Positions 286-41,775 of a stretch of 41,775 bases of DNA are shown piece after piece. Origin of the DNA: Escherichia phage C130_2. Each line of letters opens with the position of its first letter. The stretch's first letter is position 1. The stretch lies in the sequence record MH363708; one strand, 5' to 3'. Below the pieces are notes generated by a model, which was not told the origin of the DNA, did not search any database, and worked only from the letters and a program-made list of their open reading frames with translations. The position numbers and the translations under genes were made by a program.

Positions 286-1222
286 CGCGTCGCTTCTGCT
301 GCTGGCCCGCCAGGTCTTGCGCTACTGTCTTCACGAATGCTTCGGCATCGGTTGGCTGGGTGCTGCCGTCGCTGCGTGGCGTCGCTGGGTCGCCTTTCAG
401 CACCCAATGCCCCTGCGTCACCTCAATTGCGTTGCCGGACTCGGTGAGCGCTTCCCACGCTTTGAGCGGCACGGCGTGCCCGTGGTTGATCTCCGTCACC
501 AGTGCGCGCGCCTGGCCCACGGTCTGCCCGATCTTCTCCAGACGTGCGGCAAGGTCGGCAATCGGTGGAGGCAGTACGCCACCAGCCAGCGCCAGCCCGT
601 GCAACGATTCGCGCAGGTTGGCTATTGCTTCGCCGTCCTCAACGCTAAACGGCACGCCCTCAAGCGCTTTGCAAAGGTCAAGCGCGCTGGTCGCCAGGTT
701 GCTAACCTGCTTGCGCCAGGTGTCGGCGTCCTGCTTGATCGTGGCGCGCAACTTTTCGTTTTCCTGCTCGGCGTCGGCTAACTGCTGGCAAAGCTGGGTG
801 TTAACATCGTTGATCGCCTTGATCGCCTTGTTCTCTCCCTGCTGGTAGCCCAGCACCTGATCGCGAAGTCTGACGATCTCCGCTTCGGATTCGCGCATAA
901 GGAACTGAAACACGGCTGGCGGCGTGCTCCACTGCCCAGCATTCTTGCGCATTGCCTCGCGTTGCTCGCTCTGCTCCAGTGCGGCGCGCAGTTGTTCGAT
1001 CCGGCTGTGCAACTCATGACTATTGCGCACCCAATCTGCATGACCAATCGCCACCAGCCCGCAGAACGTCACGCCAAACGTTAACAGCGCGCCGGTTGAA
1101 ATGAACGAGGCCGATTCGCCGCCCAAAACCCAGCCAGCCGCAGCCAGCGCCGTTGCCAGTGCCGAAACAATGAGCGCGTGACCTACTCCAAACAATTTGT
1201 TTACCATTGTGATTATTTCCAT
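101..1222 (-). CDS. Membrane protein with N-terminal transmembrane helices and long coiled-coil region, function unknown
   Basis: 373-aa ORF; two to three hydrophobic helices near the N-terminus, then heptad-like Q/E/L/R-rich sequence. Preceded by promoter-like site 1296-1345 and a 16-bp palindrome in the leader. An alternative start at 1207 is possible. Confidence 0.55.
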   Translation of the reverse strand: MEIITMVNKLFGVGHALIVSALATALAAAGWVLGGESASFISTGALLTFGVTFCGLVAIGHADWVRNSHELHSRIEQLRAALEQSEQREAMRKNAGQWSTPPAVFQFLMRESEAEIVRLRDQVLGYQQGENKAIKAINDVNTQLCQQLADAEQENEKLRATIKQDADTWRKQVSNLATSALDLCKALEGVPFSVEDGEAIANLRESLHGLALAGGVLPPPIADLAARLEKIGQTVGQARALVTEINHGHAVPLKAWEALTESGNAIEVTQGHWVLKGDPATPRSDGSTQPTDAEAFVKTVAQDLAGQQQKRREALEAIADAMSRGYNESPEFNAAYHRGGLYVTDELIASEYQRASAWIGKGGHLAKSSDRAI

Positions 1223-1295: not shown

Positions 1296-1345
1296 CCTCA
1301 TATATTAATCGGGTATCAAAACCCACGTTTAACAAAAAGTGCTAT
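1296..1345 (-). promoter_or_regulatory. Promoter-like bipartite element (inverted-repeat motif plus TATA-rich element) for gene 101-1222
   Basis: Minus strand reads ATAGCACTTTTTGTTAAAC, then about 18 nt, then TTAATATATGAGG. Member of the recurring motif family (see findings). Confidence 0.45.
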
Positions 1346-3757: not shown

Positions 3758-3806
3758 AAATAGCACTTTTTGCTAAAACAGATTAATACAGACCATATAT
3801 AGTTAA
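3758..3806 (+). promoter_or_regulatory. Promoter-like bipartite element (site A) for the plus-strand early block
   Basis: AAATAGCACTTTTTGCTAAAACA (3758-3780), 18-bp spacer, CATATATAGTT containing a TATAGT -10-like hexamer; inverted-repeat centre about 42 bp upstream of the predicted start site. Confidence 0.5.
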
Positions 3807-3836: not shown

Positions 3837-4004
3837 ATGAACTTTCCAAAAATCACTTACACCGCCAGCCGTAGCAAAAAATTCATCACCATTGAGCACG
3901 CGCCAAAATACGGCGTAAGCACCAAAGTAACGCGCAACGTTACCGGCAAACGTGAAGCGCGTCAGATTGCAAATGAGCTGGGCGGCATCTGCTGGAACTT
4001 CTAA
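3837..4004 (+). CDS. Hypothetical small basic protein (55 aa)
   Basis: ATG at 3837 with GAGG RBS 9 nt upstream; below the track size cut-off, translated manually (MNFPKITYTASRSKKF...ICWNF). Followed by a GGCCCC-TTCG-GGGGCC hairpin. Confidence 0.4.
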   Translation: MNFPKITYTASRSKKFITIEHAPKYGVSTKVTRNVTGKREARQIANELGGICWNF

Positions 4005-4012
4005 CCAACCAC

Positions 4013-4028
4013 GGCCCCTTCGGGGGCC
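4013..4028 (+). other. GC-clamped UUCG-tetraloop hairpin within the operon
   Basis: GGCCCCTTCGGGGGCC; no U-tract follows, so it is more likely an RNA stability or processing element or a weak attenuator than a full terminator. Confidence 0.35.
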
Positions 4029-4049
4029 ATATCAACTGAGGCAAAGACC

Positions 4050-4739
4050 ATGCAAAACAAAAAAGTATTCGTTAAAGAGGATCGCTATCTGGTGATCAAG
4101 CGCGCTGACCTGGAAGCGGCAACCGCTGCGGGGCTGCTGTCAGTTGGTCAGATTGCGATCCTGAATAAGATCCTTTGCGAGTCCAGCCGGATCCGCAGCA
4201 ACCGTGGCGCACGCCCGCTGCACGGCCTGTTTGTTGAAAATGACTGGCCTGAATACGACGCCGTTTTAAAGATGATTGCAGACCGCGTGGAAGGCGTGGA
4301 CGGCGCTGATAAGCAGGGGCCGATCCTTTACTGCATCGTTGACGCTGACGGCTTGCCATTCATGCAGGAATACTGCGTTGATCTGGATGCAGCCGCATTG
4401 CAAAAAGAAGTGGACGCGATGAACGAGCAAGACGGGATCCCCCCAGGTGGTGACGGCTTCCGCGTCGTGCCCCTTGAGGTGTACACCATTTCAGGCGCGC
4501 AACAACGCTGGGCCTGGTCAACGATCTTTGATCGCTTCCTGCGCACATTCCCTGAGCAAATGAACGTGCCCAACCGCAACGCAACCACGATGATTGATGA
4601 TCTGCTGGGTGAGTACGGCGAGATCCGCGATAATGCCCAGGCGGTGATCGACGAACTCGAAGAGGCGGCGAGCCATTCACCGGACGCCCGCCCAGCGATC
4701 AACAACGCGATCAAACTTCTCCGGGGTCTGCACAAATAG
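4050..4739 (+). CDS. Hypothetical early protein (229 aa), acidic
   Basis: Long ORF with GAGG RBS; no recognisable motif. Confidence 0.6.
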   Translation: MQNKKVFVKEDRYLVIKRADLEAATAAGLLSVGQIAILNKILCESSRIRSNRGARPLHGLFVENDWPEYDAVLKMIADRVEGVDGADKQGPILYCIVDADGLPFMQEYCVDLDAAALQKEVDAMNEQDGIPPGGDGFRVVPLEVYTISGAQQRWAWSTIFDRFLRTFPEQMNVPNRNATTMIDDLLGEYGEIRDNAQAVIDELEEAASHSPDARPAINNAIKLLRGLHK

Positions 4740-4780
4740 CACTTTTTGTTAAAACGATGGGATAATTACTATATATACTT
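4736..4780 (+). promoter_or_regulatory. Promoter-like bipartite element (site B)
   Basis: ATAGCACTTTTTGTTAAAAC, 18 bp, TATATATACT (TATACT -10-like), upstream of gene 4812. Confidence 0.5.
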
Positions 4781-4811
4781 ATCCCATCACTTACGAATGA
4801 GGGCAAACAAA

Positions 4812-5042
4812 ATGGCACGTTCAACGATTCGCGTTACCAACGATCAGGGCTTCGGCGGTTACTATGGCAACCTGCGCAAGTGGGAAGGCGTGAAGGCACG
4901 CGATCTGGCATGGCGTGAAGAGTTGGGCGCACCGGAAGCGGCCCAGGATCCAGACTGGTGGATCGACGAAACCACAACGCGCGGCGAGTACAACGCCCGC
5001 ACCCGTGCCCACGCTGCCAAATGGCGTGACGATTGGGCGTAA
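4812..5042 (+). CDS. Hypothetical small protein (76 aa)
   Basis: ATG at 4812 with GAGGG RBS; followed by hairpin GGTGCCCTTCGGGGCACC (5051-5068). Confidence 0.5.
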   Translation: MARSTIRVTNDQGFGGYYGNLRKWEGVKARDLAWREELGAPEAAQDPDWWIDETTTRGEYNARTRAHAAKWRDDWA

Positions 5043-5083
5043 TCAAACGCGGTGCCCTTCGGGGCACCAATGCTGGGGGATGT

Positions 5084-7545: not shown

Positions 7546-8078
7546 CGTGGGCCGCTGTAGTTGCAGCGATCCAACGGTGGTGGAAGCCAGCCGCGCTGCT
7601 GTTGCTGCTGGGTGGATCCTTCGCCGCCGGCACGGCCTGGAATGATCGGGGCTGGCAAGCAAAATGGGCTGATCGGGATGCAAAAGAATCCTCCCAGGAA
7701 ACGAACGCGCAGACCGCAGCCCGCATGATTGAACAAGGGCGAACCATTGCCCGTGAAGAGGCTGTGAAAGATGCACAACAACAAGCGGCAAAAGCTGCTG
7801 CCACTGCTGCTGGCCTGTCTGCCACTGTTAGCAAGTTGCAGCAACAAGCCGGAAAACTCGCAACCCGCCTGGACGCCGCAAAGCACACCGCAGATCTTGC
7901 CGCTGCCGTCGCAAGCAAGACAACCGGCGCAAACGCCGCAATGCTCGCCAACATGCTCGGAAGCCTTGCAGAAGAAGCTAAATATTATGCTGGAAGATCT
8001 GACGAAAGCTATCGGGCCGGAATGACGTGTGAAAGGATTTACGATCAGGTGCGGGAGTCAAACAACAAGGGGCCATGA
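7542..8078 (+). CDS. i-spanin (Rz-like)
   Basis: ATGA overlap with the endolysin stop; N-terminal TM helix then Ala/Gln-rich coiled-coil periplasmic domain; last gene of the lysis cassette. Confidence 0.65.
7771..8025 (+). CDS. o-spanin (Rz1-like lipoprotein) embedded in the +1 frame of the i-spanin gene
   Basis: Lies entirely within 7542-8078 in another frame; signal peptide with lipobox LLASC, proline-rich mature part with Cys residues; the classic lambda/P21 nested arrangement. Confidence 0.6.
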
Positions 8079-8092
8079 TGGCCCCTTTTTTT
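8069..8092. terminator. Bidirectional intrinsic terminator between the lysis cassette and the convergent Ig-like gene
   Basis: GGGGCCATGATGGCCCC followed by T7 on the plus strand and a U-rich stretch on the minus strand. Confidence 0.6.
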
Positions 8093-10321: not shown

Positions 10322-10636
10322 TTACTGATCCCCCCAGCCGTAAGCGGCTTTTAAATTTTCGTTAGCCTTCTGCATTTGTGCGTGGGCTTCGCGCAGCGTA
10401 TCGCGTTTCACTTCCACTGACGCGGCGTAAAGGCGGGTACGGTTGCGAAGGCTGCAAGCGTTGTCGAAGTTGACGCGCGCCAGCGCCAGCGCCAGTGGAT
10501 TAACCACGCGGAGCGGTTCGGATCCTTCGCGGCTTCCGGTGAATACCAACGCTTTTGCGCGGTAGATCTCGCAGCCCGCAAAGGCTGCTTTCTTGCCCCA
10601 ATGTTTAGCGCGTAATTCCTGGATAGTTGCTTTCAT
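10322..10636 (-). CDS. Hypothetical protein (104 aa)
   Basis: ATG at 10636 with GGGAGG RBS; first gene downstream of promoter-like site C. Confidence 0.5.
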   Translation of the reverse strand: MKATIQELRAKHWGKKAAFAGCEIYRAKALVFTGSREGSEPLRVVNPLALALARVNFDNACSLRNRTRLYAASVEVKRDTLREAHAQMQKANENLKAAYGWGDQ

Positions 10637-10660: not shown

Positions 10661-10710
10661 GGGTTAACTATATATGGTCATTATGCCGGATGTTTAGCAA
10701 AAAGTGCTAT
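10661..10710 (-). promoter_or_regulatory. Promoter-like bipartite element (site C)
   Basis: Minus strand ATAGCACTTTTTGCTAAACA, 18 bp, CATATATAGTTAACCC; the 16-mer CATATATAGTTAACCC is identical to that at site A. Confidence 0.5.
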
Positions 10711-10713
10711 CAA

Positions 10714-10734
10714 CAAAAAACCGCCCGAAGGCGG
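10714..10734 (-). terminator. Intrinsic terminator (UUCG tetraloop hairpin plus U-run)
   Basis: Minus strand CCGCC-TTCG-GGCGG followed by TTTTTTGTTG, directly after the stop of gene 10735-11529. Confidence 0.6.
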
Positions 10735-11529
10735 TTAATATGGCACGTTGGCATTTGAGAGGAAAACGGCTTCGGCAAAGCCTCGCGGCGTCACACTCCT
10801 GATCGCCTTTGTCCTGGCATTCCGGCCCCCTGCGGCGTACCAGCCAGGATTGCAGCGCTTCCCGTTGATCAGCTGTATGGGCACCGGATTTTTTGGAGGC
10901 ATCACGAATGCTTCATTGCACCAAATGCCGGTTTTCTTCGGGTACGCATCGCGCGGCGGGTAGATCGTCGGGTAGATCGGGTGAGCGTCCACCTCTGGCA
11001 GATAGCCGCCATACTCGAACGGGTCGAAGGTGTGATCCGGCCTTCTCCACTGCGTGTTAAGCGTGTTAACTGCCGGATTCTCAAGCATCCACGGGATCTG
11101 CTTGCCGTCGCCGTTCTGCATGTCGCAGTAACCAGCAACCCACATCACCAGCTTTGCCAGCCTGATCGCGTCCTGCTGATCCTGTCGGCGGTTCGGGTAG
11201 TTTGGATGCGGGCGGCGCTCGCTGGTTGGCAAGTGCTTATCATCTGGATGATAGAACCACTTCGCGCCGGTGGTGGTTAGGTACGTGCATTCAGCGAAGC
11301 TGGCGACGAACTCAACGCCAGGGCCAACCATGCTGGCGATCTCCTGCGCTTGATTCACGATATCATGAGCCTTGAACCACATCCCCACGCGAACGATCAG
11401 AGGATTGACCGGATCGCGGTGAATGCCGTCAGGGTGTTTGCCGTCGAATAACCAACATTCATAACCTGCCCCCAACCAGGGGGCGGGCATAATGTCCGAT
11501 TCGTTAAAAAGGAAAATGGCTTTGCGCAT
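10735..11529 (-). CDS. Hypothetical enzyme-like protein (264 aa), function unknown
   Basis: Long ORF coupled to the upstream gene; His/Asp/Cys-rich; contains ENP and a C-terminal PRGFAEAV segment only faintly like C5-methyltransferase motifs. No confident assignment. Confidence 0.5.
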   Translation of the reverse strand: MRKAIFLFNESDIMPAPWLGAGYECWLFDGKHPDGIHRDPVNPLIVRVGMWFKAHDIVNQAQEIASMVGPGVEFVASFAECTYLTTTGAKWFYHPDDKHLPTSERRPHPNYPNRRQDQQDAIRLAKLVMWVAGYCDMQNGDGKQIPWMLENPAVNTLNTQWRRPDHTFDPFEYGGYLPEVDAHPIYPTIYPPRDAYPKKTGIWCNEAFVMPPKNPVPIQLINGKRCNPGWYAAGGRNARTKAIRSVTPRGFAEAVFLSNANVPY

Positions 11530-13811: not shown

Positions 13812-13857
13812 ATACTATATATAAAGACTTTGCAAACGCTTTAGCAATTCGTGCTAT
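13812..13857 (-). promoter_or_regulatory. Promoter-like bipartite element (site D)
   Basis: Minus strand ATAGCACGAATTGCTAAAGC, 18 bp, TATATATAGTATG, upstream of dUTPase. Confidence 0.5.
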
Positions 13858-19095: not shown

Positions 19096-19623
19096 ATGGC
19101 AACGCGCGGAGTTAACAAAGTAATTATCGTCGGCAACCTGGGGCAAGATCCCGAAGTGCGATATATGCCCAGCGGCGGTGCCGTAGCAAACATCACGGTT
19201 GCCACCTCGGAAAGCTGGAACGATAAGGGCACCGGCGAGAAGAAAGAGCAAACGGAATGGCACCGGATCGTTTTGTTCGGCAAGTTGGCTGAGATCGCCG
19301 GTGAATACCTCAAAAAAGGATCGCAGGTCTACATTGAGGGCAAGTTACAAACTCGCAAGTGGACTGACAAAGACGGCGTGGAGCGCTACACAACGGAAGT
19401 TGTTGTGAGCATGGGCGGCACAATGCAAATGCTCGGCGGGAAGAATGCGCCAGCCAGCCAGACTGCGTGGGGGGATCCTCAACAACCTGGCGGCAATGGG
19501 GCAAATCCTCAACGTGGGGGCCGTGGGGCGTCTAACGGCAATCAGCGCGGCAACCGTCCGGCTAATCAGTCGCAAGGCGCTAACGAGCCTCCTGTTGACT
19601 TTGATGATGATATACCGTTTTAA
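19096..19623 (+). CDS. ssb: Single-stranded DNA-binding protein
   Basis: Near-identity over the OB fold to E. coli SSB as recalled ([28 protein letters not shown]...[12 protein letters not shown]...[13 protein letters not shown]), Gly/Gln-rich linker, acidic tip DFDDDIPF. Confidence 0.95.
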
Positions 19624-19629
19624 CTGGTC

Positions 19630-19650
19630 GGCCCCTTCGGGGGCCATTTT
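19630..19650 (+). terminator. UUCG-tetraloop hairpin with short U-run (partial terminator)
   Basis: GGCCCC-TTCG-GGGGCC followed by ATTTT. Confidence 0.45.
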
Positions 19651-19663
19651 GTAGGGCTGGCCC

Positions 19664-20098
19664 ATGAAAATTTGCACAACCTGCAAGGAATCAAAGCCGC
19701 TGACGGAATACCACGCCAACCGGCGAAGCAAAGACGGCAAATCATGCACCTGTAAGGGCTGCAAACGCGATAAAGATCGCAGCCGGTACGAATCCAACGC
19801 CGATGCAGTAAAAGCCCGTGTGCGGGCTTATCAGGCCGCAGAAGGCAAGGCCGTTGCGAATGGCTGCAAAGCTGAGTACAAAAAGCGCCACCCGAAGAAG
19901 GCGCGGGCACATCAACTGGTTAGAAATGCTCTTCGGCGCGGTGAATTAACGCGCCAGCCGTGCGAAGCGTGCGGCACGTCCAACCATGTGATCGCCCATC
20001 ATGACGATTACGATCAGCCGCTGGCGGTGCGCTGGCTGTGCGAAGATCATCACAAAGAATGGCACCGCATCAACGGAGAGGCAAAAAACCCATGTTAA
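19664..20098 (+). CDS. HNH endonuclease
   Basis: CxxC...CEACG...HHDDYDQPL...WLCEDHH arrangement typical of HNH nucleases. Confidence 0.6.
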   Translation: MKICTTCKESKPLTEYHANRRSKDGKSCTCKGCKRDKDRSRYESNADAVKARVRAYQAAEGKAVANGCKAEYKKRHPKKARAHQLVRNALRRGELTRQPCEACGTSNHVIAHHDDYDQPLAVRWLCEDHHKEWHRINGEAKNPC

Positions 20099-20704: not shown

Positions 20705-20733
20705 ATAAGGGGCCATTGCGGCCCCTTTTTTTA
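20705..20733. terminator. Bidirectional intrinsic terminator between the plus-strand block and the tailspike gene
   Basis: A-run, GGGGCCATTGCGGCCCC, T7. Confidence 0.65.
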
Positions 20734-22983
20734 TGTTGGCGTGCGGAACGACACAACTTTTGCCGCTGCAAGCTGGGTGCCAGCCGGTGTGGCGGTCTGG
20801 ATAGCGTGAGCAATATCGATCCTGATCTCACTGGTTGGATCGTTCACGTTGACACGATAAGGCCCGCGCGTGATCCACGTAGAAAGAGGATTGCCCCCTT
20901 CACCGGCACCAGGGATCACAATTCGGCACCCTGGCGAAAGTGGCGTTTTGTAGATCCAGACCATATCACCATTATTGCCACCTAGCGGAAAGTTTGAAGC
21001 AATCGAGAAGGATCCCACGGTGGTTGCCTTGATTTTAAATTCATCAATGGCGGGAATGTACGCGCCGGAGGCGGTCACAACGAAGATCTTTCCGTCATTT
21101 CGAACAACGAGATCCCCCTCCATGAACTCACGCCCCGTGGGGAATGCGTTACCATCCCAAATGCCCGTGGCGTTCATATCAGCCGGTGACGGAATGATAT
21201 AAGTGTGATTCGATGCGGTCATTTTTGCACCGATCCCGCCGTCAATCCCCTGGCGCGGATATGGGCGCGCAAAGACGTTGGATCCTACGCTTTCGATATG
21301 CGAATAGGCGCAGCGTGACCAACCTTGATCGCCGTAGCCGTTCACGTCAGTTGCGTTAACGTTGACCATTCGCAAGATGGTGCGCCCCGTGGCAAGGTAG
21401 CCGTTTGAAGCTGTGCCGCCCGATGAATCATCACCCACGCAATCAAAGATCCGGCAATGAACATTGCTCATGTTCAATTCAGTTGCCACACCGAAAAGCG
21501 AGAATTTCGCCACGTTCACATTTTCAATGTAATACGTGTTAGTTGCCCCTGCCTTCTCGGTGCCGATACCGGCATAAAAGCGCCCTGTTTTACTGTATAC
21601 GTTGCGGATCGCCATATCGTGACAAGGGCCGCGCGCGCCAACGCCAGCATTTGTGCCCCATTCAAGCATAATAACGCGCACATCCTGGGCAAGCGTGCTG
21701 CCGGTAACTACCGGTTCACCGTAAACCCCATCAATGGAGCAACGGCGGGAGCCGTAGAAAAGCACCGTCGCAACCGTCAGGCCGGAACCGTTCGAAACGT
21801 TCTGGTTGGGGTCGCCGTGGATGTTTTCAACAACGGAATCACGAACCATTTCGAAGTGTACGATCTGACGCACTTTGTTTGCGTAAACGTTACGGATCGT
21901 AATGTTTTTGGCAAAGTTTGCGTCAGGTGTATCAATGCCATAAGGGCTTTGACCTGCAACCCCAATCCCAATACCCCAGTTTGACGGCGTGATCGGGGCT
22001 TGGCCTGTTGAGTCGATGTTATCAAGGAAAATGCCGTCAATCAGGCAACCATTATCATAATGGCGCTGTACTACGTTTAACTCGATCCCGTCGCCGCCCA
22101 TATCGTAAAACGACAAATTGCGGTAGACGCCGGACACAACCGTTGATCCCGTGCCTTGCTGGAGGATGCCGTAAAGGCCATTCCGAAACTCGGAATCGCT
22201 GACCTCAATAGTGCTTCCGTCCACTGGCACACCCTGCATCATGATTGATGCAACCTTGCTGGTTGTCGGCTTACCGTCAAACATGCAATCGCGGATCCTT
22301 ACGTCGCCGCCGTAGTGCATGATTCGCAGGTTGTTAATCACTGCACCTTCGATCAGGGTGTCAGTCAGGCGAAAATCTGCGGTGCCCTTCCAGGTTCCCC
22401 CCATGATGGTGATCCCATTCGGGTTGACCGTGCTTTCAAGCGTGCCAGACCAACCATAAGCGTTGACGATCTTCCCGTTCGCTTTGGCGTAGTCAAACAT
22501 TGCCTGAATCGCCTGTGAAACGCTGGTGTACTCTTCGCGGCCCACAAAATCAAACGGCGTCACAAAGCCTTGCAGTTTGGTTTTTAGCGTGCCTTCTGGC
22601 GTGCCCACGTATTCCCAGCCGGTAGACGATCCGATCACCTTCCACATCTGCGCCGCGTCATATTCCAGAAGGTTATCAAAGGAATATTGCAGCACGTCAT
22701 TGCGATCATAAACGTCCATGCTTGATGCGGTCTGCGTCACAAAGCGCCCAACAATCCCGTTATATTCGGGATAGCCGCTCTGGTTGATTTTGATCGGCTG
22801 CGGCACCGGCACCAGCGTTAGATCCTCATTTTCCAGGTACACTTGCACCTGATTTGCCGGATCCTTCGGGTTGGTGTCGGGCTTGCCAATATAGATATCA
22901 CCGCCGCTGATAGGCGCAAACTTGCCAACCTGAATAAACGGGCTGGACGGCATACGCACGGCAGAAAAAACAATATCGCTCAT
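20731..22983 (-). CDS. Tailspike protein (P22-like N-terminal head-binding domain, beta-helix receptor-binding domain)
   Basis: ATG at 22983 with GAGG RBS; N-terminus GDIYIGKPDTNPKDPANQVQVYLENED...PIKINQSG..YNG matches the P22 tailspike head-binding domain as recalled; rest is Gly/Asn/Val-rich, consistent with a parallel beta-helix. Confidence 0.85.
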   Translation of the reverse strand: MSDIVFSAVRMPSSPFIQVGKFAPISGGDIYIGKPDTNPKDPANQVQVYLENEDLTLVPVPQPIKINQSGYPEYNGIVGRFVTQTASSMDVYDRNDVLQYSFDNLLEYDAAQMWKVIGSSTGWEYVGTPEGTLKTKLQGFVTPFDFVGREEYTSVSQAIQAMFDYAKANGKIVNAYGWSGTLESTVNPNGITIMGGTWKGTADFRLTDTLIEGAVINNLRIMHYGGDVRIRDCMFDGKPTTSKVASIMMQGVPVDGSTIEVSDSEFRNGLYGILQQGTGSTVVSGVYRNLSFYDMGGDGIELNVVQRHYDNGCLIDGIFLDNIDSTGQAPITPSNWGIGIGVAGQSPYGIDTPDANFAKNITIRNVYANKVRQIVHFEMVRDSVVENIHGDPNQNVSNGSGLTVATVLFYGSRRCSIDGVYGEPVVTGSTLAQDVRVIMLEWGTNAGVGARGPCHDMAIRNVYSKTGRFYAGIGTEKAGATNTYYIENVNVAKFSLFGVATELNMSNVHCRIFDCVGDDSSGGTASNGYLATGRTILRMVNVNATDVNGYGDQGWSRCAYSHIESVGSNVFARPYPRQGIDGGIGAKMTASNHTYIIPSPADMNATGIWDGNAFPTGREFMEGDLVVRNDGKIFVVTASGAYIPAIDEFKIKATTVGSFSIASNFPLGGNNGDMVWIYKTPLSPGCRIVIPGAGEGGNPLSTWITRGPYRVNVNDPTSEIRIDIAHAIQTATPAGTQLAAAKVVSFRTPT

Positions 22984-23035
22984 TGTTGGTGCCTCGTTGT
23001 TGTATTCAGGCTTTAGTGTATAGACGTTCAGGAAA

Positions 23036-23057
23036 TTAAAAAAGGGGCCGAAGCCCC
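23036..23057 (-). terminator. Intrinsic terminator (UUCG hairpin plus U-run) upstream of tailspike
   Basis: Minus strand GGGGC-TTCG-GCCCC followed by TTTTTTT; the 20-mer is identical to the terminator at 31301-31320. Confidence 0.6.
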
Positions 23058-23062
23058 TTTGG

Positions 23063-26000
23063 TTACTGCTGCCCGTAGATCTGGATCCGCTGCTCACCGT
23101 CAGGGCCGGTGATTAACGGCGGGCGCTCGTCGGTCTGCTCACCGTCGCTGGCTGCTGCCGCTGCCGGAGTACCGGCAAGCCATGCGATGAAACCAGCGCG
23201 GGCGATTTGACGTTGATCAGCCTCGGCAAGCGTGGCGATAAAGTCTTGGGCCGCTTTGCTGTTCGCAAGGCGTCGCTCTGTGGTGTTGATGATCGTCCGG
23301 CTTGGGCCGCTGGATCCATCGTCTGCCACCATGCGAGCAACCGCCCTGATCGCCTGGGTCATATCATCACCGGCGAGGAAACGATCCGCAACCTGCGAAG
23401 CCGCAGCACGGTTGGCAACTGCCCCGCGCGCAGCCTCAACGGCAACGTTACCGAAGCCAGGAGAAACCGCAGCCGCCGCCGATTGCGTCAACATGGCACC
23501 GATCCGCGTGTTAAAGACTTTATCCAAAAAGTCATTGCTGTTGTTGAAGCGGCGCGAAAAGTTGTTGATCTTGCCGGTGGCGGCGAAAGATTCACCCTCT
23601 TTGCGGGCTGCGTTGGCGACTTTCGCCAGGTTGTCAACAACTGCACGCTGATCCGCTGGCAGGTGCTGCATGAGCATTCCCAATTTGCCTGAGTTGCGCG
23701 CCTCGGTGTACCACTTCGCAAAGCCTGGAATGTTCAGGCGTTCGCCGGTGGTGCCGCTCATGCGGAATGCCATTGCAAGCGCGTTGGTCGCAACCTGCGG
23801 GCGCATAGCCGCTGGCGTTGATCGCATGAGAGTTTGAAAACCCTTTGGATCTGCGCCTTTGGTGCCCAGCGCTTTAACAGCCTGATAAATCTTGCTGCTT
23901 GCGGAATTATCAAGCTCTTTGCCCAGCACGGCTTGCTGTTTGGCCTGTAGCGCCACGCGCTGACGGGTCAGATCCTTTGCCGCATCCCACGCATCTTTCA
24001 CGCCAAACTGTGCCGCCACATCCCCTTGATCCTCGGTTAAACGGCTGTACATGGCGTTAAGGCGCGCAACGTTCGCATCCTTGTATGGGCCTTGACGCTT
24101 GTTAATCGCCGCGCCAACGTCTTTGCGCACATCGTCCAGAAGGGCGAAAGTCGGCCCGCCTCGGCTGTCGCTGGTTGGGCTTAGGCGTTCCAATACGCTA
24201 CGCTCAATCGGATCCAGGTTGGCTGCGCCGCCACGGTTACTGGCTTTCTGGTTGAGGTAATCAACCGTCTTTTCTGGATTTACCGGAGTGTGATCCGGGA
24301 TCGTGCGCAATGATTTGTTATAGGCCGCAGTTTCAGCGGTGCCGATATCATCGATCAGTCGGCTTGTCTCTGCCTTGAATGCCTGATCGAAGGTGAGATC
24401 CTCAACCGGCCCGCCTAAGTCTTCCAGCACCTTATCTGCGCGGGCAGTCAACGCCTGATACTGGCGGCTCTGCTTCTCACCCAAAAGGGATCCGGTTTCG
24501 CTGCGCAGGTTGCCGATCACGTCGCGGGTTGACTTGTCGCGCATAAACAGGCCAGGCGTCAGATCGTCAGTCACGCCCAATTCATCTGCGGCGCGCACAA
24601 CCTCTGGATCGATATCGCCACGGCGCGCAAGGTTGATCGCCGCGTTCGGTGCGCTGGAAGTCTCGCCGGTTGCCGCGTCGGTTACTGTGGTGCGCGGTGC
24701 GCTTCCGCGTGCTGCTGCGGTTGCATCCTGTCGCACGGCGTCAATAGCGGCTTGTTGCGTCGCTTCTGCGCCACCAGTACCAGTGCCAGTGCCCGCGCCC
24801 GTTGCGTCCTCTGCTGGGCGGATCAGATCACGGATCACCGGTGCTGCACGCCGTGCGGCTGCGCCAACGGCATTTACTGCCGCCTCGCCCACTGGCCCTG
24901 CTGCGATGCCGATCAGCGCGTCTTGCTGGTCGCCTTCGCTGGCTGCAAGGGCACCTGGCACGGCACGGGTTGCCGGTGCTGCGATCCGTTGCTCAAGGAA
25001 TCCCCCCAAACGGGAAAGGATGCTCGCAACCTCTGGCGAAGCTGTGCCCGCCAATTCTGCCATTTCGCGTGCGATACCCTGAATTTTCGGGGCTGCTGAC
25101 ATAGCCGCGCCACCAGGGATCGGGGTCAGACCGGCGATCAACTTCGCGCCAAACTGAGCATAAGGATCTTCGGGATCATCAAGCCCCATGCCGATCCGGC
25201 CTTCGGGGATCGGGGTATAGGTGCCGTCACCCAGCCCAACTTGCTTGCCCAGCCATGCACCGGCAGACTGTGCCGCGTTCGCTGCATAGATCGGGATGTT
25301 GAGCACGTCTTCTGCTGCGCGCACTAAACCTTTGCCCGCCTGAGTCAGATCGCGCCCAATCGTTGTGGGTGCCTGGTAATCCTGCAACTGCTCTGCGCTG
25401 TAGTAGTCGCCGCTGGTGTCTGGTTGCGGCTGTGCGGCGCTCTGCTGCGTCGTGGCGGCTTGCGGCTGTGGTTGGGTGTCCATAGTCGCTTGCGGCTGTT
25501 CTGGCGCTGCTGGCTGCGTTTCCTGCGGTGCTCGCGGGGTCAGTTCGCCAAACTGGCTGGCAAATTTGTTGGTTGATCCGGTGTCGCCGGCACGGGCGCT
25601 GGTTGCCCGCTGTGGCGCGTCGGAGTCTGTGACCGCACCCAAAGCGCGATCAATCGGGTTAACGCCGCCCGTCCACTGGTCAAAGCGTGAATCGACGTAT
25701 TGACGCCCTTCCGGCCCTGGGGTGTACTCGCCTTTTAACATGGCGTCGGTGTTGCCTGGGCCGTCATGGTACGCTTGCAGGGCCAGCCCCCAATCGCCGT
25801 AGCGGTCATACATCTGGCGCAGGTATTTTGCGCCCGCTTCGGCCTGTAGCGCAGGATTGTTGCGCACCTCTGCTGGGTCATAGCCCATATCGCGCAGCGT
25901 GCCTGGCATAACCTGAGTGCCACCAATGGCACCTTTGCTGGACGTTGCGCCAGTGTCGCCGCCAGACTCTTTGCCAACGAGCGCAGACATAAGCCCTTCT

Positions 26001-26128
26001 GGAATGCCCTGTGATGCGCCCGCCGCTTCCCAATGATTGCCGCCCTGCTGCTGCGGGGCGGTCTGCTGCGGTTGTGCCTGGGCGTTGCCGCCCAGGTTCC
26101 CGAAAGTTGCCGCAAAGTTGAAAGCCAT
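23063..26128 (-). CDS. Ejection / internal virion protein with N-terminal lytic transglycosylase (SLT) domain
   Basis: 1021 aa; N-terminal GKESGG...GGTQVMPGT...AYHDGPGN SLT signature; long Ala/Gly/Thr-rich low-complexity remainder; in the position of P22 gp16. Confidence 0.7.
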   Translation of the reverse strand: MAFNFAATFGNLGGNAQAQPQQTAPQQQGGNHWEAAGASQGIPEGLMSALVGKESGGDTGATSSKGAIGGTQVMPGTLRDMGYDPAEVRNNPALQAEAGAKYLRQMYDRYGDWGLALQAYHDGPGNTDAMLKGEYTPGPEGRQYVDSRFDQWTGGVNPIDRALGAVTDSDAPQRATSARAGDTGSTNKFASQFGELTPRAPQETQPAAPEQPQATMDTQPQPQAATTQQSAAQPQPDTSGDYYSAEQLQDYQAPTTIGRDLTQAGKGLVRAAEDVLNIPIYAANAAQSAGAWLGKQVGLGDGTYTPIPEGRIGMGLDDPEDPYAQFGAKLIAGLTPIPGGAAMSAAPKIQGIAREMAELAGTASPEVASILSRLGGFLEQRIAAPATRAVPGALAASEGDQQDALIGIAAGPVGEAAVNAVGAAARRAAPVIRDLIRPAEDATGAGTGTGTGGAEATQQAAIDAVRQDATAAARGSAPRTTVTDAATGETSSAPNAAINLARRGDIDPEVVRAADELGVTDDLTPGLFMRDKSTRDVIGNLRSETGSLLGEKQSRQYQALTARADKVLEDLGGPVEDLTFDQAFKAETSRLIDDIGTAETAAYNKSLRTIPDHTPVNPEKTVDYLNQKASNRGGAANLDPIERSVLERLSPTSDSRGGPTFALLDDVRKDVGAAINKRQGPYKDANVARLNAMYSRLTEDQGDVAAQFGVKDAWDAAKDLTRQRVALQAKQQAVLGKELDNSASSKIYQAVKALGTKGADPKGFQTLMRSTPAAMRPQVATNALAMAFRMSGTTGERLNIPGFAKWYTEARNSGKLGMLMQHLPADQRAVVDNLAKVANAARKEGESFAATGKINNFSRRFNNSNDFLDKVFNTRIGAMLTQSAAAAVSPGFGNVAVEAARGAVANRAAASQVADRFLAGDDMTQAIRAVARMVADDGSSGPSRTIINTTERRLANSKAAQDFIATLAEADQRQIARAGFIAWLAGTPAAAAASDGEQTDERPPLITGPDGEQRIQIYGQQ

Positions 26129-27451
26129 TTAAAGCCCCTCTGGTAAATAGCCCGCCCATTCTTTAAAGGCGCGTTTGTTCTCTTCTGACGGGTCAGAGAG
26201 TAGCATTTTGCGCGCCTGGGCTGGTACTCCCAATTCATCCAGCTTGGGATCATTCATCACCGCATCATAACGGCTGGTGTTGTTGGTGTATTCCTTCACG
26301 CGCCCGCCGTTGGCTTTTTCGTACCCATCGCGCAAACGCTTAAGGTAGTTGCCAAAGTTTTTGATCGCACGCTGTGCCGCTGCCGGATCCTGAATGTTTT
26401 CAGGGTCGAAGCCCATCAACGATTGCGTGATCGCCATGCTTTCTTTTTCGGACATGCCCGCAGCCGTACCGGATGCAGCCTTGAGTGCCGCCATTGATTG
26501 CGACATTGCCAGGCCTTGAAGTGACTTAAGATCCTGCACCAGTTGCTTTTCATCGTTCGCGCCAGGGATGTTGCGCGCAATGGTGCCGCTTAAACCGCTT
26601 GCGCCTTCCCACGCCGTCTGCAAACGCTGTTTGCTGGCTGGGTTTTTCTGGTTGTCAGGGATCAGGCGGTTGACCTGTCCAATTGCATTATCAAGCGTCG
26701 TAACCTGGCTGTTGTAGCCGTTCAGCCAGTCGCGCTGGGTGTCTACGGTGTCGCCGTATACCTGCGCTTGTTTCTGCTGCGCTGCGGTGCGCTCACGCTC
26801 GCTCTTCGCCAGTTCGGCTTGCTGCTTGGCTTGCTGGCCCTGATAGCGCAAAAAGTTAAACTGGCGATTCATAGCCAGATTAGCCGCCTGGATATCCTGC
26901 GAGCGAGCCGTAAGGCGGTTGCGCTCAACCTCGTTGGCGTAGTCCAGTTGGTCTTTTGTGCCCATGCTGGAAAGCTGCACCGCGTGAACCGCCTGTTCAA
27001 AGCCCTGCTGGTCTGTCTGGTACTGCTCCCACGCATCCTGCGGATCGATGTTCAGCGCCTGGAATGCACCGGCGTTTTGCTGAATAAACTGCTGTACCTG
27101 CTGCGGCCCCTGAGACATTGCCACGCGCACGCCGTTTGCAAGCTGGCCCGCCTGGGTCGCTTGCATATCGTCTTGCAGCCCGATCCGCTCTTTCAGGGTG
27201 CTAATCATCGACGGGTATTTATAAACCAGATCATTCAGCTTTTGCGGATCGCCGCGTGCCGCGCTCCAATCCTGGTTAAACTGCTGCAATTGCTGCTGCT
27301 GCTGATCCTGCTGCTGCATGGCTTTAGCACGGATCTGGTTCTGCTGCTGCAATCCGGTGTTTTGCTGGATCGTCTGAATGTTATTGAGCGTGTTTTGCCC
27401 TGCGCGCTCAATAACCCCCATGTTTTGACCGAAAACGCTCATATCTGACAT
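26129..27451 (-). CDS. Ejection protein (P22 gp20-like by position), Gln-rich
   Basis: 440 aa, translationally coupled, very Q-rich; assignment by synteny only. Confidence 0.45.
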   Translation of the reverse strand: MSDMSVFGQNMGVIERAGQNTLNNIQTIQQNTGLQQQNQIRAKAMQQQDQQQQQLQQFNQDWSAARGDPQKLNDLVYKYPSMISTLKERIGLQDDMQATQAGQLANGVRVAMSQGPQQVQQFIQQNAGAFQALNIDPQDAWEQYQTDQQGFEQAVHAVQLSSMGTKDQLDYANEVERNRLTARSQDIQAANLAMNRQFNFLRYQGQQAKQQAELAKSERERTAAQQKQAQVYGDTVDTQRDWLNGYNSQVTTLDNAIGQVNRLIPDNQKNPASKQRLQTAWEGASGLSGTIARNIPGANDEKQLVQDLKSLQGLAMSQSMAALKAASGTAAGMSEKESMAITQSLMGFDPENIQDPAAAQRAIKNFGNYLKRLRDGYEKANGGRVKEYTNNTSRYDAVMNDPKLDELGVPAQARKMLLSDPSEENKRAFKEWAGYLPEGL

Positions 27452-30956: not shown

Positions 30957-31283
30957 TCACTTATCCTTTTTGGCTGCTTTGCTGTTTTCTTTGCGCTGCT
31001 GCTGCGGCTTCTTGGCGGGCACCTCAGACGCGCCAGCATACGGCAACAACGCTTGATAATGGGTAGGCATTGGGCCGGTGCTTTCGTGGCGTTCTGGTGG
31101 CGCTGGCGTCGCTGCTGGGGCTTCTGCCTTCTTGGGCTGCGGCACGTCCGATGGGTGCGCGTACCAATCGCCGGATTTCAACGCTTCTTCAACGTCTGAA
31201 TCATTGAAAACAGCACTTTTTGCAAAGAATTTACCCCAATAAAGTTTATTCTTGCCTTCGGTGTAAAGCATGGTGGTTGACAT
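30957..31283 (-). CDS. Hypothetical protein (108 aa), Lys/Pro-rich C-terminus
   Basis: ATG at 31283 with GAGGA RBS directly downstream of the coat-gene terminator. Confidence 0.45.
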   Translation of the reverse strand: MSTTMLYTEGKNKLYWGKFFAKSAVFNDSDVEEALKSGDWYAHPSDVPQPKKAEAPAATPAPPERHESTGPMPTHYQALLPYAGASEVPAKKPQQQRKENSKAAKKDK

Positions 31284-31300
31284 GGTGAGATCCTCATATG

Positions 31301-31320
31301 AAAAAAGGGGCCGAAGCCCC
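31301..31320 (-). terminator. Intrinsic terminator after the coat gene
   Basis: Minus strand GGGGC-TTCG-GCCCC followed by TTTTTT; identical to 23036-23057. Confidence 0.65.
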
Positions 31321-31353
31321 TTATTTATACACTTTTCAATCAGGTTGCGCCAG

Positions 31354-32619
31354 TTACGGCACAACGATCTGATTTGTCGCCACAACTGCCACGTATTCTG
31401 GCACCAGGACGTTTGCACCATAAAGCGTGGTGAAACGACAAGTGGTTTCGCCTTTCAGGTGGTCGAATGCGTAGGACATGATCAGGTATGCGCCCTGCTC
31501 AGTGGTCGCCGTCATTACCTGCGGGCCTTGACCGGTAGGGAATGCCAGCTTGCCATACATCAGCTCAACGGAACCATCAGCCCAAAGCAGGTTAGTTGCG
31601 GTTGCGCGCTTGTTAAGCACGGTGATCGCAGCACCCGAAGCGGCGTTGGCCTGTACGTTGGCGTAAGCACGGGATTTCTGATCCGCGTTGTCCAGCGGCA
31701 GGATCTTCGGAGAGATCGTTACGCTGGTGCCCTGCACGCCCAGCACGCGGAATACCTGCGGCTGGTCGGTGGTTTCCTTACCGATCAGATGCACCATATC
31801 CACGCCCTCAATGGTGAAGGCGTCGCCAACTTGCAGACCTGCGCCGGAAACGGTGATCACGCCCTGACGGTTATCAATCGGCAGGTTTGACACCGGATCC
31901 ATTGCTTCCACGGTGTGCGCTGGCGCTGCTGCCAGGGTCAGATCAGCCGTGGTGCCGGTTGGGATGCGTCCAGACTGATCAACCTTGTAGCTGTCGAAGC
32001 TGGCAACGTCTGGAATCTTCGCCTTTTCGAAAGCGGTCTGGTTAATGCCGGAGGTGTAAGAGCGCCCCGCCAGTTCACCTGCGATGTTTTTATAATCGCG
32101 GGCGTTCAGGAATGCGCGCTTAGTGATGCCCATCGGCACGCCGATCATTGTGAAATTGGCGTCAGCGTCTGCGATACCATCCCAAAGATCACGGCCCAGG
32201 GTGCCGGTTGAGTTATCGCCCACACCAACAAAGTTGGTAGCGCGCAAGGTCGCCTGGGTAACGAGATCCAGATCGATTTGCGCAGCGAGGCGTTGACCTG
32301 CGGCGCGGCCCGCTTCTTTCTTGTGTTCGTCGTCGCGCATTTCGTATGCGTCGAGAGTCCACAAAACGTTTTGAGGCGCTTTATACGCCGCTGGCACCTG
32401 ACGCTGTACCAGTTCAGTTTGCGCAGCGTTGGAAACGTCCAGGCCTTCCACAATATCCATGTGGTAGCGCTGCGGGCGGTGGATCACATCACCGGCGCGT
32501 TGCATGGTCTTATCATCTGGACGGAAGATCTTAGCGTTTTTGGAGACTACGCAAGCGGCTTCGAAGCCTTCCACGTACTCTTCAAACAAGATCTCAAGGT
32601 CTTTCGTTAACTGGTTCAT
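31354..32619 (-). CDS. Major capsid (coat) protein, P22-like
   Basis: 421 aa; AGGAG RBS; C-terminal blocks QKSRAYANV and NLLWADGSVEL resemble P22 gp5 (EQRAYANVN, NVFWADDAIRIV) as recalled; strong terminator downstream. Confidence 0.85.
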   Translation of the reverse strand: MNQLTKDLEILFEEYVEGFEAACVVSKNAKIFRPDDKTMQRAGDVIHRPQRYHMDIVEGLDVSNAAQTELVQRQVPAAYKAPQNVLWTLDAYEMRDDEHKKEAGRAAGQRLAAQIDLDLVTQATLRATNFVGVGDNSTGTLGRDLWDGIADADANFTMIGVPMGITKRAFLNARDYKNIAGELAGRSYTSGINQTAFEKAKIPDVASFDSYKVDQSGRIPTGTTADLTLAAAPAHTVEAMDPVSNLPIDNRQGVITVSGAGLQVGDAFTIEGVDMVHLIGKETTDQPQVFRVLGVQGTSVTISPKILPLDNADQKSRAYANVQANAASGAAITVLNKRATATNLLWADGSVELMYGKLAFPTGQGPQVMTATTEQGAYLIMSYAFDHLKGETTCRFTTLYGANVLVPEYVAVVATNQIVVP

Positions 32620-33726: not shown

Positions 33727-33742
33727 TTTACACCGTTGTAAA
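33727..33742. promoter_or_regulatory. 16-bp palindromic element TTTACACCGTTGTAAA in the scaffold-gene leader
   Basis: Arms TTTACA / TGTAAA; the same element, one central mismatch, occurs at 1267-1282 in the leader of gene 101-1222. Confidence 0.4.
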
Positions 33743-33754
33743 GGTGAATGCACG

Positions 33755-33782
33755 AAAAAATCCACCCAGCAACGGGGCTGGG
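33755..33782 (-). terminator. Intrinsic terminator after gene 33801-34247
   Basis: Minus strand CCCAGC-CCCGTT-GCTGGG followed by TGGATTTTTT. Confidence 0.45.
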
Positions 33783-34730: not shown

Positions 34731-34774
34731 ATTCTTAACCCTCATGAATTAGTGAAGTGTACGGGCAAAGAATA

Positions 34775-34813
34775 GCCCGCCGAAGCGGGCTTGTCTTTAG
34801 CAAAAAGTGCTAT
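34775..34813 (-). promoter_or_regulatory. Inverted-repeat motif copy (site E) plus UUCG hairpin at the portal / insert junction
   Basis: Minus strand ATAGCACTTTTTGCTAAAG overlapping the portal stop codon, followed by GCCCGC-TTCG-GCGGGC; no TATATAG element here. Confidence 0.4.
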
Positions 34814-37098: not shown

Positions 37099-37143
37099 AT
37101 AGCACAAATTGCTAAAACATTTCACGGATTAATGATTATAGTA
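37099..37143 (+). promoter_or_regulatory. Promoter-like bipartite element (site G) driving a plus-strand ORF inside the late region
   Basis: ATAGCACAAATTGCTAAAACA, 18-bp spacer, then TGATTATAGTA (contains the TATAGT hexamer). Confidence 0.45.
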
Positions 37144-37176: not shown

Positions 37177-37380
37177 ATGGGAATCGAAATTACTGTGGGC
37201 CTGTTGTTGATGCGCGTTGCTTGCGCGCTGGTGGTTGGTCTGGCTGCGGGCCGCATTGGTCGCCGTGGCTGGCTGTGGGCACTCGTCACACTGGCTGGCG
37301 GCGTGATCATCGGCCTGGGCGGTCTGTTCATTGCCGAAGTGGTGAAGGCGCGGGCCAAAAAATCCCGCGTGCCGGCGTGA
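37177..37380 (+). CDS. Small two-helix membrane protein (67 aa) transcribed antisense to the late operon
   Basis: ATG at 37177 with GAGG RBS; two hydrophobic helices (ITVGLLLMRVACALVVGLAAG, WLWALVTLAGGVIIGLGGLFIA) and a basic C-terminus; lies between the terminase and portal genes. Confidence 0.5.
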   Translation: MGIEITVGLLLMRVACALVVGLAAGRIGRRGWLWALVTLAGGVIIGLGGLFIAEVVKARAKKSRVPA

Positions 37381-37501: not shown

Positions 37502-37518
37502 GGGGCCATAATGGCCCC
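37502..37518. other. GC-rich hairpin GGGGCCATAATGGCCCC between the terminase and portal genes
   Basis: Perfect 6-bp stem; could terminate the antisense small-ORF transcript or act as a processing or attenuation site in the late transcript. Confidence 0.4.
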
Positions 37519-40547: not shown

Positions 40548-40620
40548 CAATGGTGATCCCCTTCTCAATGCGTAGGGGGCCGGACACGGCCCCGCATACT
40601 TGATAAGCGATGCCGCCCAT
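40420..40620 (-). CDS. Hypothetical acidic protein (66 aa); conflicts with 40188-40547
   Basis: ATG at 40620 forms a TGATG overlap with the upstream gene stop (translational coupling). Confidence 0.3.
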   Translation of the reverse strand: MGGIAYQVCGAVSGPLRIEKGITIDGEYERLAEQEASGIDYAAPEEQGRGAAIEGEDLPPPAGLPD

Positions 40621-41139: not shown

Positions 41140-41496
41140 TTAACGCCCCTGTGCTGCGTTGCCAACGCTTCTGACGGCTTCCGCATAGCTGCGTTTGGCG
41201 ATTGCCTCGGCCTCTTTGCGGGAGTACCCACGGCGCATAAGTGACGCCGTACCTTTGGCGATCAGACGCGCCTTTTTCTCTTTGCGTGTCTCGCCCTCTT
41301 TGCGGTCTGGCACGTCAGGCGGTGTGCCCATCATGGCACGCTGCATGGCTGCGCGTGGCTTCACAATACCGGCGTTGATCGCCTCCTGCCGGATGTTATC
41401 GGCGCGCATCTTCTGGATCGGCTCTGGTATCACTTCGGCTTTTTGTTTCGAACTGATCACCATGTTAACCAATGCGCTGATAATCCCTCGTTTCAT
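41140..41496 (-). CDS. Hypothetical basic protein (118 aa), first gene after the terminator hairpins
   Basis: ATG at 41496 preceded by TGAGG 9 nt upstream; the track ORF extends further but this is the first ATG with an RBS. The window begins at the reverse complement of its first two codons (ATGAAA). Confidence 0.5.
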   Translation of the reverse strand: MKRGIISALVNMVISSKQKAEVIPEPIQKMRADNIRQEAINAGIVKPRAAMQRAMMGTPPDVPDRKEGETRKEKKARLIAKGTASLMRRGYSRKEAEAIAKRSYAEAVRSVGNAAQGR

Positions 41497-41775
41497 CGTC
41501 TTTGCCTCATTGTTTCGTGAATGTGTGGTGAGCGTACAACAAAGGGGCCGCAGCCGCAAGCCCCTTGATATCCTCCCAGCGAGGCTGGGCTTAAATTGCC
41601 CTGTCGCTGCTCTTCGCCAGGTGTCCACCTTTGCCGATCCAGGCGCTGGCGCGCTGGTATTCGCTGGCGATCAACTCGTCGGTAACATACAGCCCGCCCC
41701 GATGATATGCCGCGTTAAACTCCGGCGATTCGTTGTAACCACGGCTCATAGCGTCTGCTATGGCTTCCAGCGCCT
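41491..41775. repeat. Terminal exact repeat, right copy (identical to 1-285)
   Basis: Same 285 bp as the window start; duplicates the 3' end of the 101-1222 gene, its terminator hairpins and the first two codons of the 41140-41496 gene. Confidence 0.9.

Follow-up and report, generated by a model that had tools for sequence, protein, structure and literature searches.

Escherichia phage C130_2 (sequence record MH363708) carries seven short, GC-rich hairpins with the loop UUCG, designated H1 to H7, which are the subject of this analysis. The window, meaning the whole stretch of DNA that was analysed, is 41,775 nucleotides (nt) long. Its first 285 nt return exactly at its other end (1-285 = 41491-41775), which leaves a unit genome of 41,490 bp. 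Since the ends overlap by 285 nt, the sequence was read as a circular assembly of 41,490 bp; an end repeat of this kind may reflect circular assembly or terminal redundancy. Gene assignments by PHROG searches give a P22-type morphogenesis arm on the minus strand, replication and recombination genes, and a lysis cassette. The morphogenesis arm encodes the large terminase, portal, scaffold and coat proteins, Ad3 and Hc3 connectors, the needle, three ejection proteins and a tailspike of the colanic-acid-degrading type (20731-22983, minus strand). ARAGORN found neither tRNA nor tmRNA in the window.

Seven UUCG hairpins behind stop codons

When the window was scanned for perfect hairpins whose stems were 6 bp or longer, the commonest tetraloop was TTCG/CGAA with seven instances (Table 1), the next loops having two each. 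By comparison, 500 dinucleotide-preserving shuffles of the window gave a mean of 0.17 and a maximum of two such UUCG hairpins. Each of the seven has the stem-loop of an intrinsic terminator, namely a 4-nt loop on a perfect stem of 6-8 bp, in which 5-6 of the pairs are G-C. Predicted folding energies run from -12.3 to -19.1 kcal/mol and z-scores from -1.3 to -3.6; in local windows five of the hairpins score between -2.1 and -3.6, while H2 and H4 score about -1.3. What follows the stem is more variable. A tract of six U residues (U6) stands behind H3, H5 and H6, the U-rich tails of H4 and H7 are interrupted, and H1 and H2 have no U-tract.

The placement of the hairpins is uniform. Intergenic DNA makes up 6.4% of the genome according to the curated gene list, and all seven hairpins lie inside it (chance p about 5e-9). 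All stand after a stop codon and before the next start on the same strand, beginning at most 31 nt past the stop or, for H3, overlapping it. On the sense strand the loop is c(UUCG)g in seven of seven cases and CGAA in none, an outcome with a probability of about 0.008 by orientation alone. Only UNCG, not CGAA, is an unusually stable loop in RNA, and the one-sided orientation is therefore what would be expected of an element acting at the RNA level.

Two pairs of these hairpins are identical. The 20-mer AAAAAAGGGGCCGAAGCCCC occurs exactly twice (23038-23057 and 31301-31320), none being expected from 100 shuffles, and the full run shared by H5 and H6 is 22 nt (23038-23059 = 31301-31322). The second pair, H1 and H4, shares the 19 nt CGGCCCCTTCGGGGGCCAT (4012-4030 = 19629-19647). 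In both pairs the identity ends at the hairpin edges. The possibility that the H5/H6 twins are leftovers of a larger duplication was rejected, their identity being just 22 nt and ending at the hairpin.

Could the set nevertheless be copies of a REP/MITE-like mobile or repetitive element, or a chance product of base composition? Identical 19-22-mers are indeed repeated, and GGGGCC/GGCCCC stems recur in at least eight hairpins of the window. Chance is opposed by the 0.17 hairpins of the shuffled sequences against the seven observed. A repetitive element is opposed by the end of identity at the hairpin edges, by the lack of any extended repeat family that includes the UUCG hairpins, by the lack of flanking repeats or target duplications, and by a placement solely past stop codons and in sense orientation. 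An origin of this kind is already largely refuted and is given almost no credence here.

An earlier note on this DNA had reported one 20-mer behind both the coat gene and the gp16-like gene, together with five related hairpins, some of them without U-tracts. The two copies are exact, the start at 23036 given there including two extra bases, and the five others are all present, two of them with A-U extensions to 10719-10736 and 34774-34791. Its gene labels were also right: the coat gene encodes a major head protein of the P22 type, and the product of the gp16-like gene is a DNA-transfer/ejection protein that contains a transglycosylase domain. H1 and H2 are the hairpins without a U-tract. The note had missed the identical H1/H4 pair and a second hairpin family at convergent gene junctions, which is described below.

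Table 1. Hairpins and promoter elements of the C130_2 window, with counterparts in Escherichia phage Skarpretter. Energies are in kcal/mol.
Feature	Position	Strand	Stem-loop or motif	Tail or flanks	Folding	Skarpretter counterpart	Context
H1	4013-4028	+	GGCCCC-UUCG-GGGGCC	no U-tract, tail AUAUCAAC	-14.4, z -2.7	GGCCCC-UGCG-GGGGCC, after small ORF	8 nt past stop of 55-aa ORF 3837-4004, which comes first after the marbox promoter at 3760; 21 nt before ATG 4050
H2	5051-5068	+	GGUGCCC-UUCG-GGGCACC	no U-tract, tail AAUGCUGG			8 nt past stop of 77-aa ORF 4809-5042, which comes first after the marbox promoter at 4736
H3	10719-10736	-	AACCGCC-UUCG-GGCGGUU	U6 tract UUUUUUGUUG		AACGCCC-UCCG-GGGCGUU, then U8	overlaps stop codon of DNA methyltransferase gene 10735-11529; marbox promoter 10710-10693 directly after
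H4	19630-19645	+	GGCCCC-UUCG-GGGGCC	interrupted U-rich tail AUUUUGUAGG (AUUUUG)		GGCCC-UUCG-GGGCC	6 nt past SSB gene 19096-19623; HNH/endonuclease VII-type gene 19664-20098 (+) next
H5	23041-23060	-	AAAGGGGC-UUCG-GCCCCUUU	UUUAAUUU; U6 tract UUUUUUAAUUU	-13.6, z -2.4	AAGGGGC-UACG-GCCCCUU, U after stem	2 nt past stop of 1021-aa gp16-like ejection/transglycosylase gene 23063-26128 (-); upstream of tailspike gene
H6	31305-31322	-	AAGGGGC-UUCG-GCCCCUU	UUUUCAUAUG; U6 tract UUUUUUCAUAUG	z -2.9	AAAGGGGC-UACG-GCCCCUUU	31 nt past stop (31354) of coat gene 31354-32619 (-), P22-type major head protein
H7	34774-34791	-	AGCCCGC-UUCG-GCGGGCU	AUUCUUUGCC; interrupted U-rich tail AUUCUUUG	-19.1, z -3.6	AGCCCCA-CGGA-UGGGGCU	18 nt past portal gene stop (34810); inside spacer from marbox 34813-34796 to -10-like TATTCT
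Second family	8067-8087	both	AAGGGGCCA-UGA-UGGCCCCUU	A-rich AAACAACAA 5', T7 run 3'			between convergent spanin gene (+) and Hoc-like gene (-)
Second family	20707-20727	both	AAGGGGCC-AUUGC-GGCCCCUU			10345-10365	between convergent early arm (+) and tailspike gene (-)
Second family	37502-37518	both	GGGGCCA-UAA-UGGCCCC			27128-27146	between convergent large terminase gene (-) and small gene 37177-37380 (+)
Marbox element	1328-1345	-	ATAGCACTTTTTGCTAAA				
Marbox element	3760-3777	+	ATAGCACTTTTTGCTAAA				
Marbox element	4736-4753	+	ATAGCACTTTTTGCTAAA				
Marbox element	10693-10710	-	ATAGCACTTTTTGCTAAA				directly downstream of H3; terminator-then-promoter joint
Marbox element	13840-13857	-	ATAGCACTTTTTGCTAAA				
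Marbox element	34796-34813	-	ATAGCACTTTTTGCTAAA				H7 in spacer; composite promoter/stem-loop cassette, PeSL-like
Marbox element	37099-37116	+	ATAGCACTTTTTGCTAAA				
ORF, open reading frame; aa, amino acids.

Conservation in relatives and recurrence in other phages

C130_2 is a podophage that looks virulent, has virion genes of the P22 type and is a relative of Skarprettervirus. The same genome is present in IMG/VR as UViG_2974611538_000001. The nearest record, "Stutzerimonas phage STP9" (OR754315.1), is 93% identical, carries the flag UNVERIFIED_ORG and is without annotation. It is followed by Escherichia phage Skarpretter, whose genome is syntenic and about 74% identical in nucleotides over the aligned parts. 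The lysis genes are of enterobacterial type (81-85% nucleotide identity to N15 and to Salmonella and Citrobacter phages). Together with the type of tailspike and the gene order shared with Skarpretter, an E. coli phage, they point to an enterobacterial host despite the "Stutzerimonas" label of the closest record.

Skarpretter has hairpins at six matching junctions, in which the stem letters differ and the pairing is kept (Table 1). At five of these six sites the sense strand carries UNCG, and of the five altered loops four differ at the free N and nowhere else (UACG twice, UCCG and UGCG). STP9, at 93% identity, is too close for a covariation test: five of the seven hairpins are unchanged there, the H1 region is absent, and H4 is altered on both arms, its post-SSB counterpart reading CGGCCC-UUCG-GGGCCG with the pairing preserved. 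The twin terminators provide a further comparison, as both Skarpretter twins carry UACG and both C130_2 twins carry UUCG. UACG is a rare loop, found in three of 119 distinct contexts among the IMG/VR 18-mer matches listed (see below). Twins that share a loop within each genome have not been evolving independently, which points to copying or gene conversion between the two sites.

The hairpin behind the coat gene can be followed further. In every enterobacterial phage with a P22-type coat that was examined, a GC hairpin and a U-run follow the coat gene. Prophages of the CUS-3/Sf101 type have GUGGGGC-UUCG-GCCCCAU with U5, and one member of this group (L014) shows a compensatory change from a G-C to an A-U pair in the stem. 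Elsewhere the loop is AUU (Murrayvirus), UUUGU (Sortsnevirus), UUUG or GAAA (Kosakonia phages) or GACAA (the distant contig L193). A requirement for UUCG at this site is thereby ruled out. Comparison of these lineages with C130_2 gives the same position with a loop and stem that vary by lineage; the post-coat position is conserved and the hairpin appears to be what is selected, with UUCG as one good solution. No description of a P22-type post-coat terminator was found in the literature.

The UUCG design itself is widespread. The 18-mer AAGGGGCUUCGGCCCCUU (also given as AAGGGGCUNCGGCCCCUU) occurs in at least 120 IMG/VR stretches from unrelated phages, jumbo phages included; among the matches listed there are at least 119 distinct contexts, and UUCG is the loop in 114 of 119. 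UUCG/CGAA is again the top tetraloop in a set of coliphage loci, T1-like ones among them, that amounts to about 1 Mb (40 of 191 distinct GC hairpins), and UUCG caps 30 of the 90 hairpins that can be oriented by a U-run. That the design is a speciality of C130_2 was rejected on these grounds, since it is common in IMG/VR contigs and T1-like loci. The earlier note had spoken of a family and a designed set. Seven non-random hairpins do exist, but the design is a generic, convergent one and is not specific to the phage.

These comparisons also bear on another reading, in which a protein or nuclease would recognise the hairpins; RNase III, an antiterminator or an RNA-binding regulator of the phage would be examples. 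An invariant loop in seven of seven hairpins of the genome, two identical pairs, and the absence of a canonical U-tract from H1, H2 and H7 would all suit such a role. Stems of 6-8 bp are, however, too short for RNase III, the stem letters vary among the seven hairpins and between relatives, and zero matches to Rfam families at gathering thresholds were obtained anywhere in the window. The occurrence of the same 18-mer in many unrelated phages moreover makes a phage-specific partner unlikely. Recognition sites are thus regarded as a very improbable explanation.

Predicted termination and transcription units

What, then, do the hairpins do? They very probably act on RNA, within messenger RNAs, as terminators, attenuators or stabilisers that follow stop codons and are built as G+C stems capped by c(UUCG)g. 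Hairpins of this sort are familiar. C(UUCG)G hairpins are reportedly found in intercistronic regions of phage T4 and in bacterial terminators, and the T4 examples share with those of C130_2 the loop, the C-G closing pair, the intercistronic position and the location on the sense strand of phage mRNAs. The two sets differ in that C130_2 belongs to a P22-type podophage lineage, in which the loops of relatives drift within UNCG and sometimes outside it. The T4 hairpins are associated with termination and mRNA stability, a role predicted for those of C130_2 as well. UUCG is also reportedly enriched in the terminators of E. coli. In kind there is nothing unusual about the C130_2 hairpins, which belong with the intrinsic terminators and intercistronic RNA hairpins that phages have been known to carry since 1988.

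The sequence, position, strand asymmetry, conservation and predicted folding of the hairpins are seen directly, and from them we infer termination, read-through and stabilisation. H3, H5 and H6 resemble the canonical intrinsic terminators of E. coli and its phages, with a GC stem 6-8 bp long, a loop of 4 nt and U6 past the stop; the other four fail the full definition, H1 and H2 being without a U-tract and H4 and H7 having interrupted ones. H3, H5 and H6 are accordingly predicted to be strong intrinsic (Rho-independent) terminators, which would efficiently stop host RNA polymerase without Rho. H3 would close the methyltransferase unit, H5 the operon for tail and ejection proteins, ahead of the tailspike gene, and H6 the scaffold-coat unit. 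H4 and H7 are most likely partial terminators, or attenuators, given their imperfect U-rich tails, and H3 and H4 would separate early units from one another. H1 and H2 lack a U-tract and are not to be classed as intrinsic terminators. By analogy, they are most likely non-terminating 3' stabilisers of RNA or pause sites, which would block 3'-exonucleases or pause RNA polymerase and so stabilise the promoter-proximal cistron.

The core of the earlier note, that the hairpins are terminators, attenuators or RNA-stabilising elements, agrees with their intergenic placement, the sense orientation of UUCG, the three U6 tracts and the conserved junctions. Its treatment of the set as one functional class does not hold, as the set is heterogeneous and comprises three strong terminators, two weak ones and two hairpins without a U-tract. 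Several observations weigh against the proposed RNA function. Termination is unlikely at H1 and H2, which have no U-tract and whose role is assigned by analogy only; the local-window z-scores of H2 and H4 are weak (-1.3); the Skarpretter post-portal loop is CGGA on the sense strand and falls outside UNCG; and the post-coat terminators of other genera have non-UUCG loops.

The arrangement around the coat gene suggests how such hairpins might be used. In P22-type phages, scaffold and coat outnumber all other virion proteins. A terminator-like hairpin (33765-33782) and a promoter-like TTTACA-18-TACACT (33742-33713, minus strand) precede the scaffold gene, which suggests that this gene and the coat gene make up a unit of their own with a predicted promoter upstream and H6 at the end. 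There is no sense promoter between H6 and the next gene, and the low-copy connector, needle and ejection genes would therefore need read-through at H6. With scaffold and coat bracketed by the predicted promoter and H6, it may reasonably be inferred that the hairpins set transcript stoichiometry.

Some further motifs occur near these units. The palindrome TTTACA-N4-TGTAAA is present in two copies and is a candidate operator for some regulator; one copy (33727-33742) shares bases with the -35-like hexamer of the promoter predicted for scaffold/coat, and the other (1267-1282) separates the marbox promoter at 1345 from the gene 101-1222 (minus strand). A conserved TATACACT is found at 23015-23022 (minus strand), shortly past H5 and about 35 nt before the tailspike ATG. 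Skarpretter has it too (12664 and 31095), its copies being likewise preceded by terminator hairpins, and in Murrayvirus and Sortsnevirus TTATACT stands directly past the post-coat terminators. The motif TATACACT/TTATACT may be a -10-only, possibly late, promoter, and its conservation in C130_2 and Skarpretter hints that the tailspike gene has its own promoter.

Convergent gene junctions are served differently. A second hairpin family, AAGGGGCC-N3-5-GGCCCCTT (also AAGGGGCC-N3-5-GGCCCCUU), occupies all three of them, with A-rich and T-rich runs on its flanks, and its members look like bidirectional terminators. The use of non-UUCG hairpins at convergent junctions fits a choice of UUCG for function in the RNA of one strand. 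A further site of this family lies at 40576-40593, and Skarpretter has copies at the same junctions (10345, 27128 and 39822). The hairpin at 37502-37518 closes the small plus-strand gene 37177-37380, which has its marbox promoter at 37099 and is flanked by two minus-strand genes, those for the portal and the large terminase; the Skarpretter annotation has three plus-strand genes, gp30-32, at the equivalent place.

Marbox promoter cassettes and possible module exchange

Several of the hairpins have a promoter element as a neighbour. The 18-mer ATAGCACTTTTTGCTAAA is present in eight copies in the window, where 0.04 would be expected, and the copies are followed by a -10-like hexamer about 20 nt downstream (19-21 nt), a short leader, a ribosome-binding site and ATG. 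The core of the element, GCACTTTTTGCTAAA, agrees at 15 of 15 positions with 5'-GCAHWWWWTGYYAAA-3', the consensus of the marbox to which MarA, SoxS and Rob bind (PMC6900184), and has the forward, -35-overlapping geometry of class II. The exact 18-mer occurs in at least 120 IMG/VR stretches (L083-L202), on contigs mostly of 46-52 kb with some of about 41 kb and of 176-180 kb. Among the matches listed, a -10-like hexamer lies 19-21 nt downstream in 81 of 110 distinct contexts, with flat controls, and a ribosome-binding site and ATG follow in 84 of 110. A 91-nt cassette query matched 136 phage records, most of them about 44-52 kb long and from siphophages of Escherichia and Klebsiella. The complete cassette, ATAGCACTTTTTGCTAAA-N20-TATAGT with a leader of the CATCGAAACGAA type, is common to Skarpretter-like and Murrayvirus podophages, T1-like siphophages and myophages of RB43 size. 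A Pfam search of ten unassigned ORFs of C130_2 gave no activator of the AraC/MarA type, and no paper linking marboxes to phage promoters was found in the literature.

A weaker, antisense copy of the element, ACAGCACTTTTTGCAAAG at 31210-31227 (plus strand) with TATTCT 19 nt later, lies inside the gene 30957-31283 (minus strand) that follows the coat gene. It points to the start codon of that gene and to H6, and its 18 letters are identical in Skarpretter (20630), where overall identity is about 74%. It could be a promoter for an antisense RNA of about 60 nt, or a reflection of a conserved FAKSAV peptide.

Combinations of a promoter and a stem-loop are known from T4-type phages as PeSL cassettes, composite promoter/stem-loop elements in which the stem-loop mostly lies between -35 and -10 (Arbiol et al., 2010, PMC2839356; Comeau et al., 2014, PMC4122927). 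C130_2 resembles these in having intergenic promoter/stem-loop composites (H3 and H7), a promoter part repeated across the genome, and some copies at the boundaries of insertions, deletions or replacements relative to a close relative. The layout of H7, with the hairpin in the promoter spacer, recurs in Skarpretter and in L193 (GCCCUC-UACG-GAGGGC) with different stems and the pairing kept. The differences are that C130_2 is a 41-kb podophage and not a T4-type myovirus, that its promoter consists of a marbox and a -10 in place of the consensus -35/-10, and that H1, H2, H4, H5 and H6 are not fused to a promoter.

This likeness raises the alternative that hairpins and promoter cassettes are PeSL-like recombination joints, acting at the DNA level in module swaps, with any role in RNA secondary. 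Homology with STP9 breaks at 1345 (the end of a marbox motif), 4734 (the start of a marbox cassette), 5081 (13 nt past H2) and 19642 (inside H4), and an HNH endonuclease gene lies directly past H4. H3 with its promoter, and H7 in its promoter spacer, mirror the PeSL layout (PMC2839356), H5 marks the boundary of gp16 and tailspike, where P22-like phages are known to have a point of high flux (PMC2629481), and the rare UACG in both Skarpretter twins implies copying between sites. Nevertheless, four of 12 STP9 homology edges fall at a marbox motif or hairpin, and four of about nine boundary breakpoints is not clearly above expectation. Most breakpoints lie at gene boundaries anyway, and the elements make up about one quarter of intergenic DNA, so that an excess at hairpins or cassettes is not convincing. 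The sequence shared at the hairpins is only 19-22 nt, H5 and H6 lie away from the STP9 breakpoints, and the strict sense-strand UUCG and the U-tracts argue for selection on RNA. Recombination as the primary role is therefore considered unlikely. The STP9 breakpoints are compatible with module exchange at regulatory joints, alongside the preferred function in RNA.

A broader proposal can be put forward tentatively, and it may well be wrong. The hairpins would be one half of a portable, PeSL-like terminator/promoter toolkit, the other half being the marbox cassette, with which phages would recruit MarA, SoxS or Rob, swap modules at the joints and homogenise terminator copies within a genome.

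For C130_2 and its relatives, the practical value of these findings is a transcription-unit map for an unannotated phage lineage. The hairpins are also a clean case, from nature, of UNCG loops being selected on one strand, and knowledge of termination itself is unchanged. The marbox link could matter more than the hairpins. The presence of a perfect class II marbox, at a constant spacing from the -10 hexamer, in many unrelated coliphages suggests that gene expression in these phages may be tied to the stress regulators of the host, which respond to compounds like salicylate and dipyridyl and to oxidative stress.

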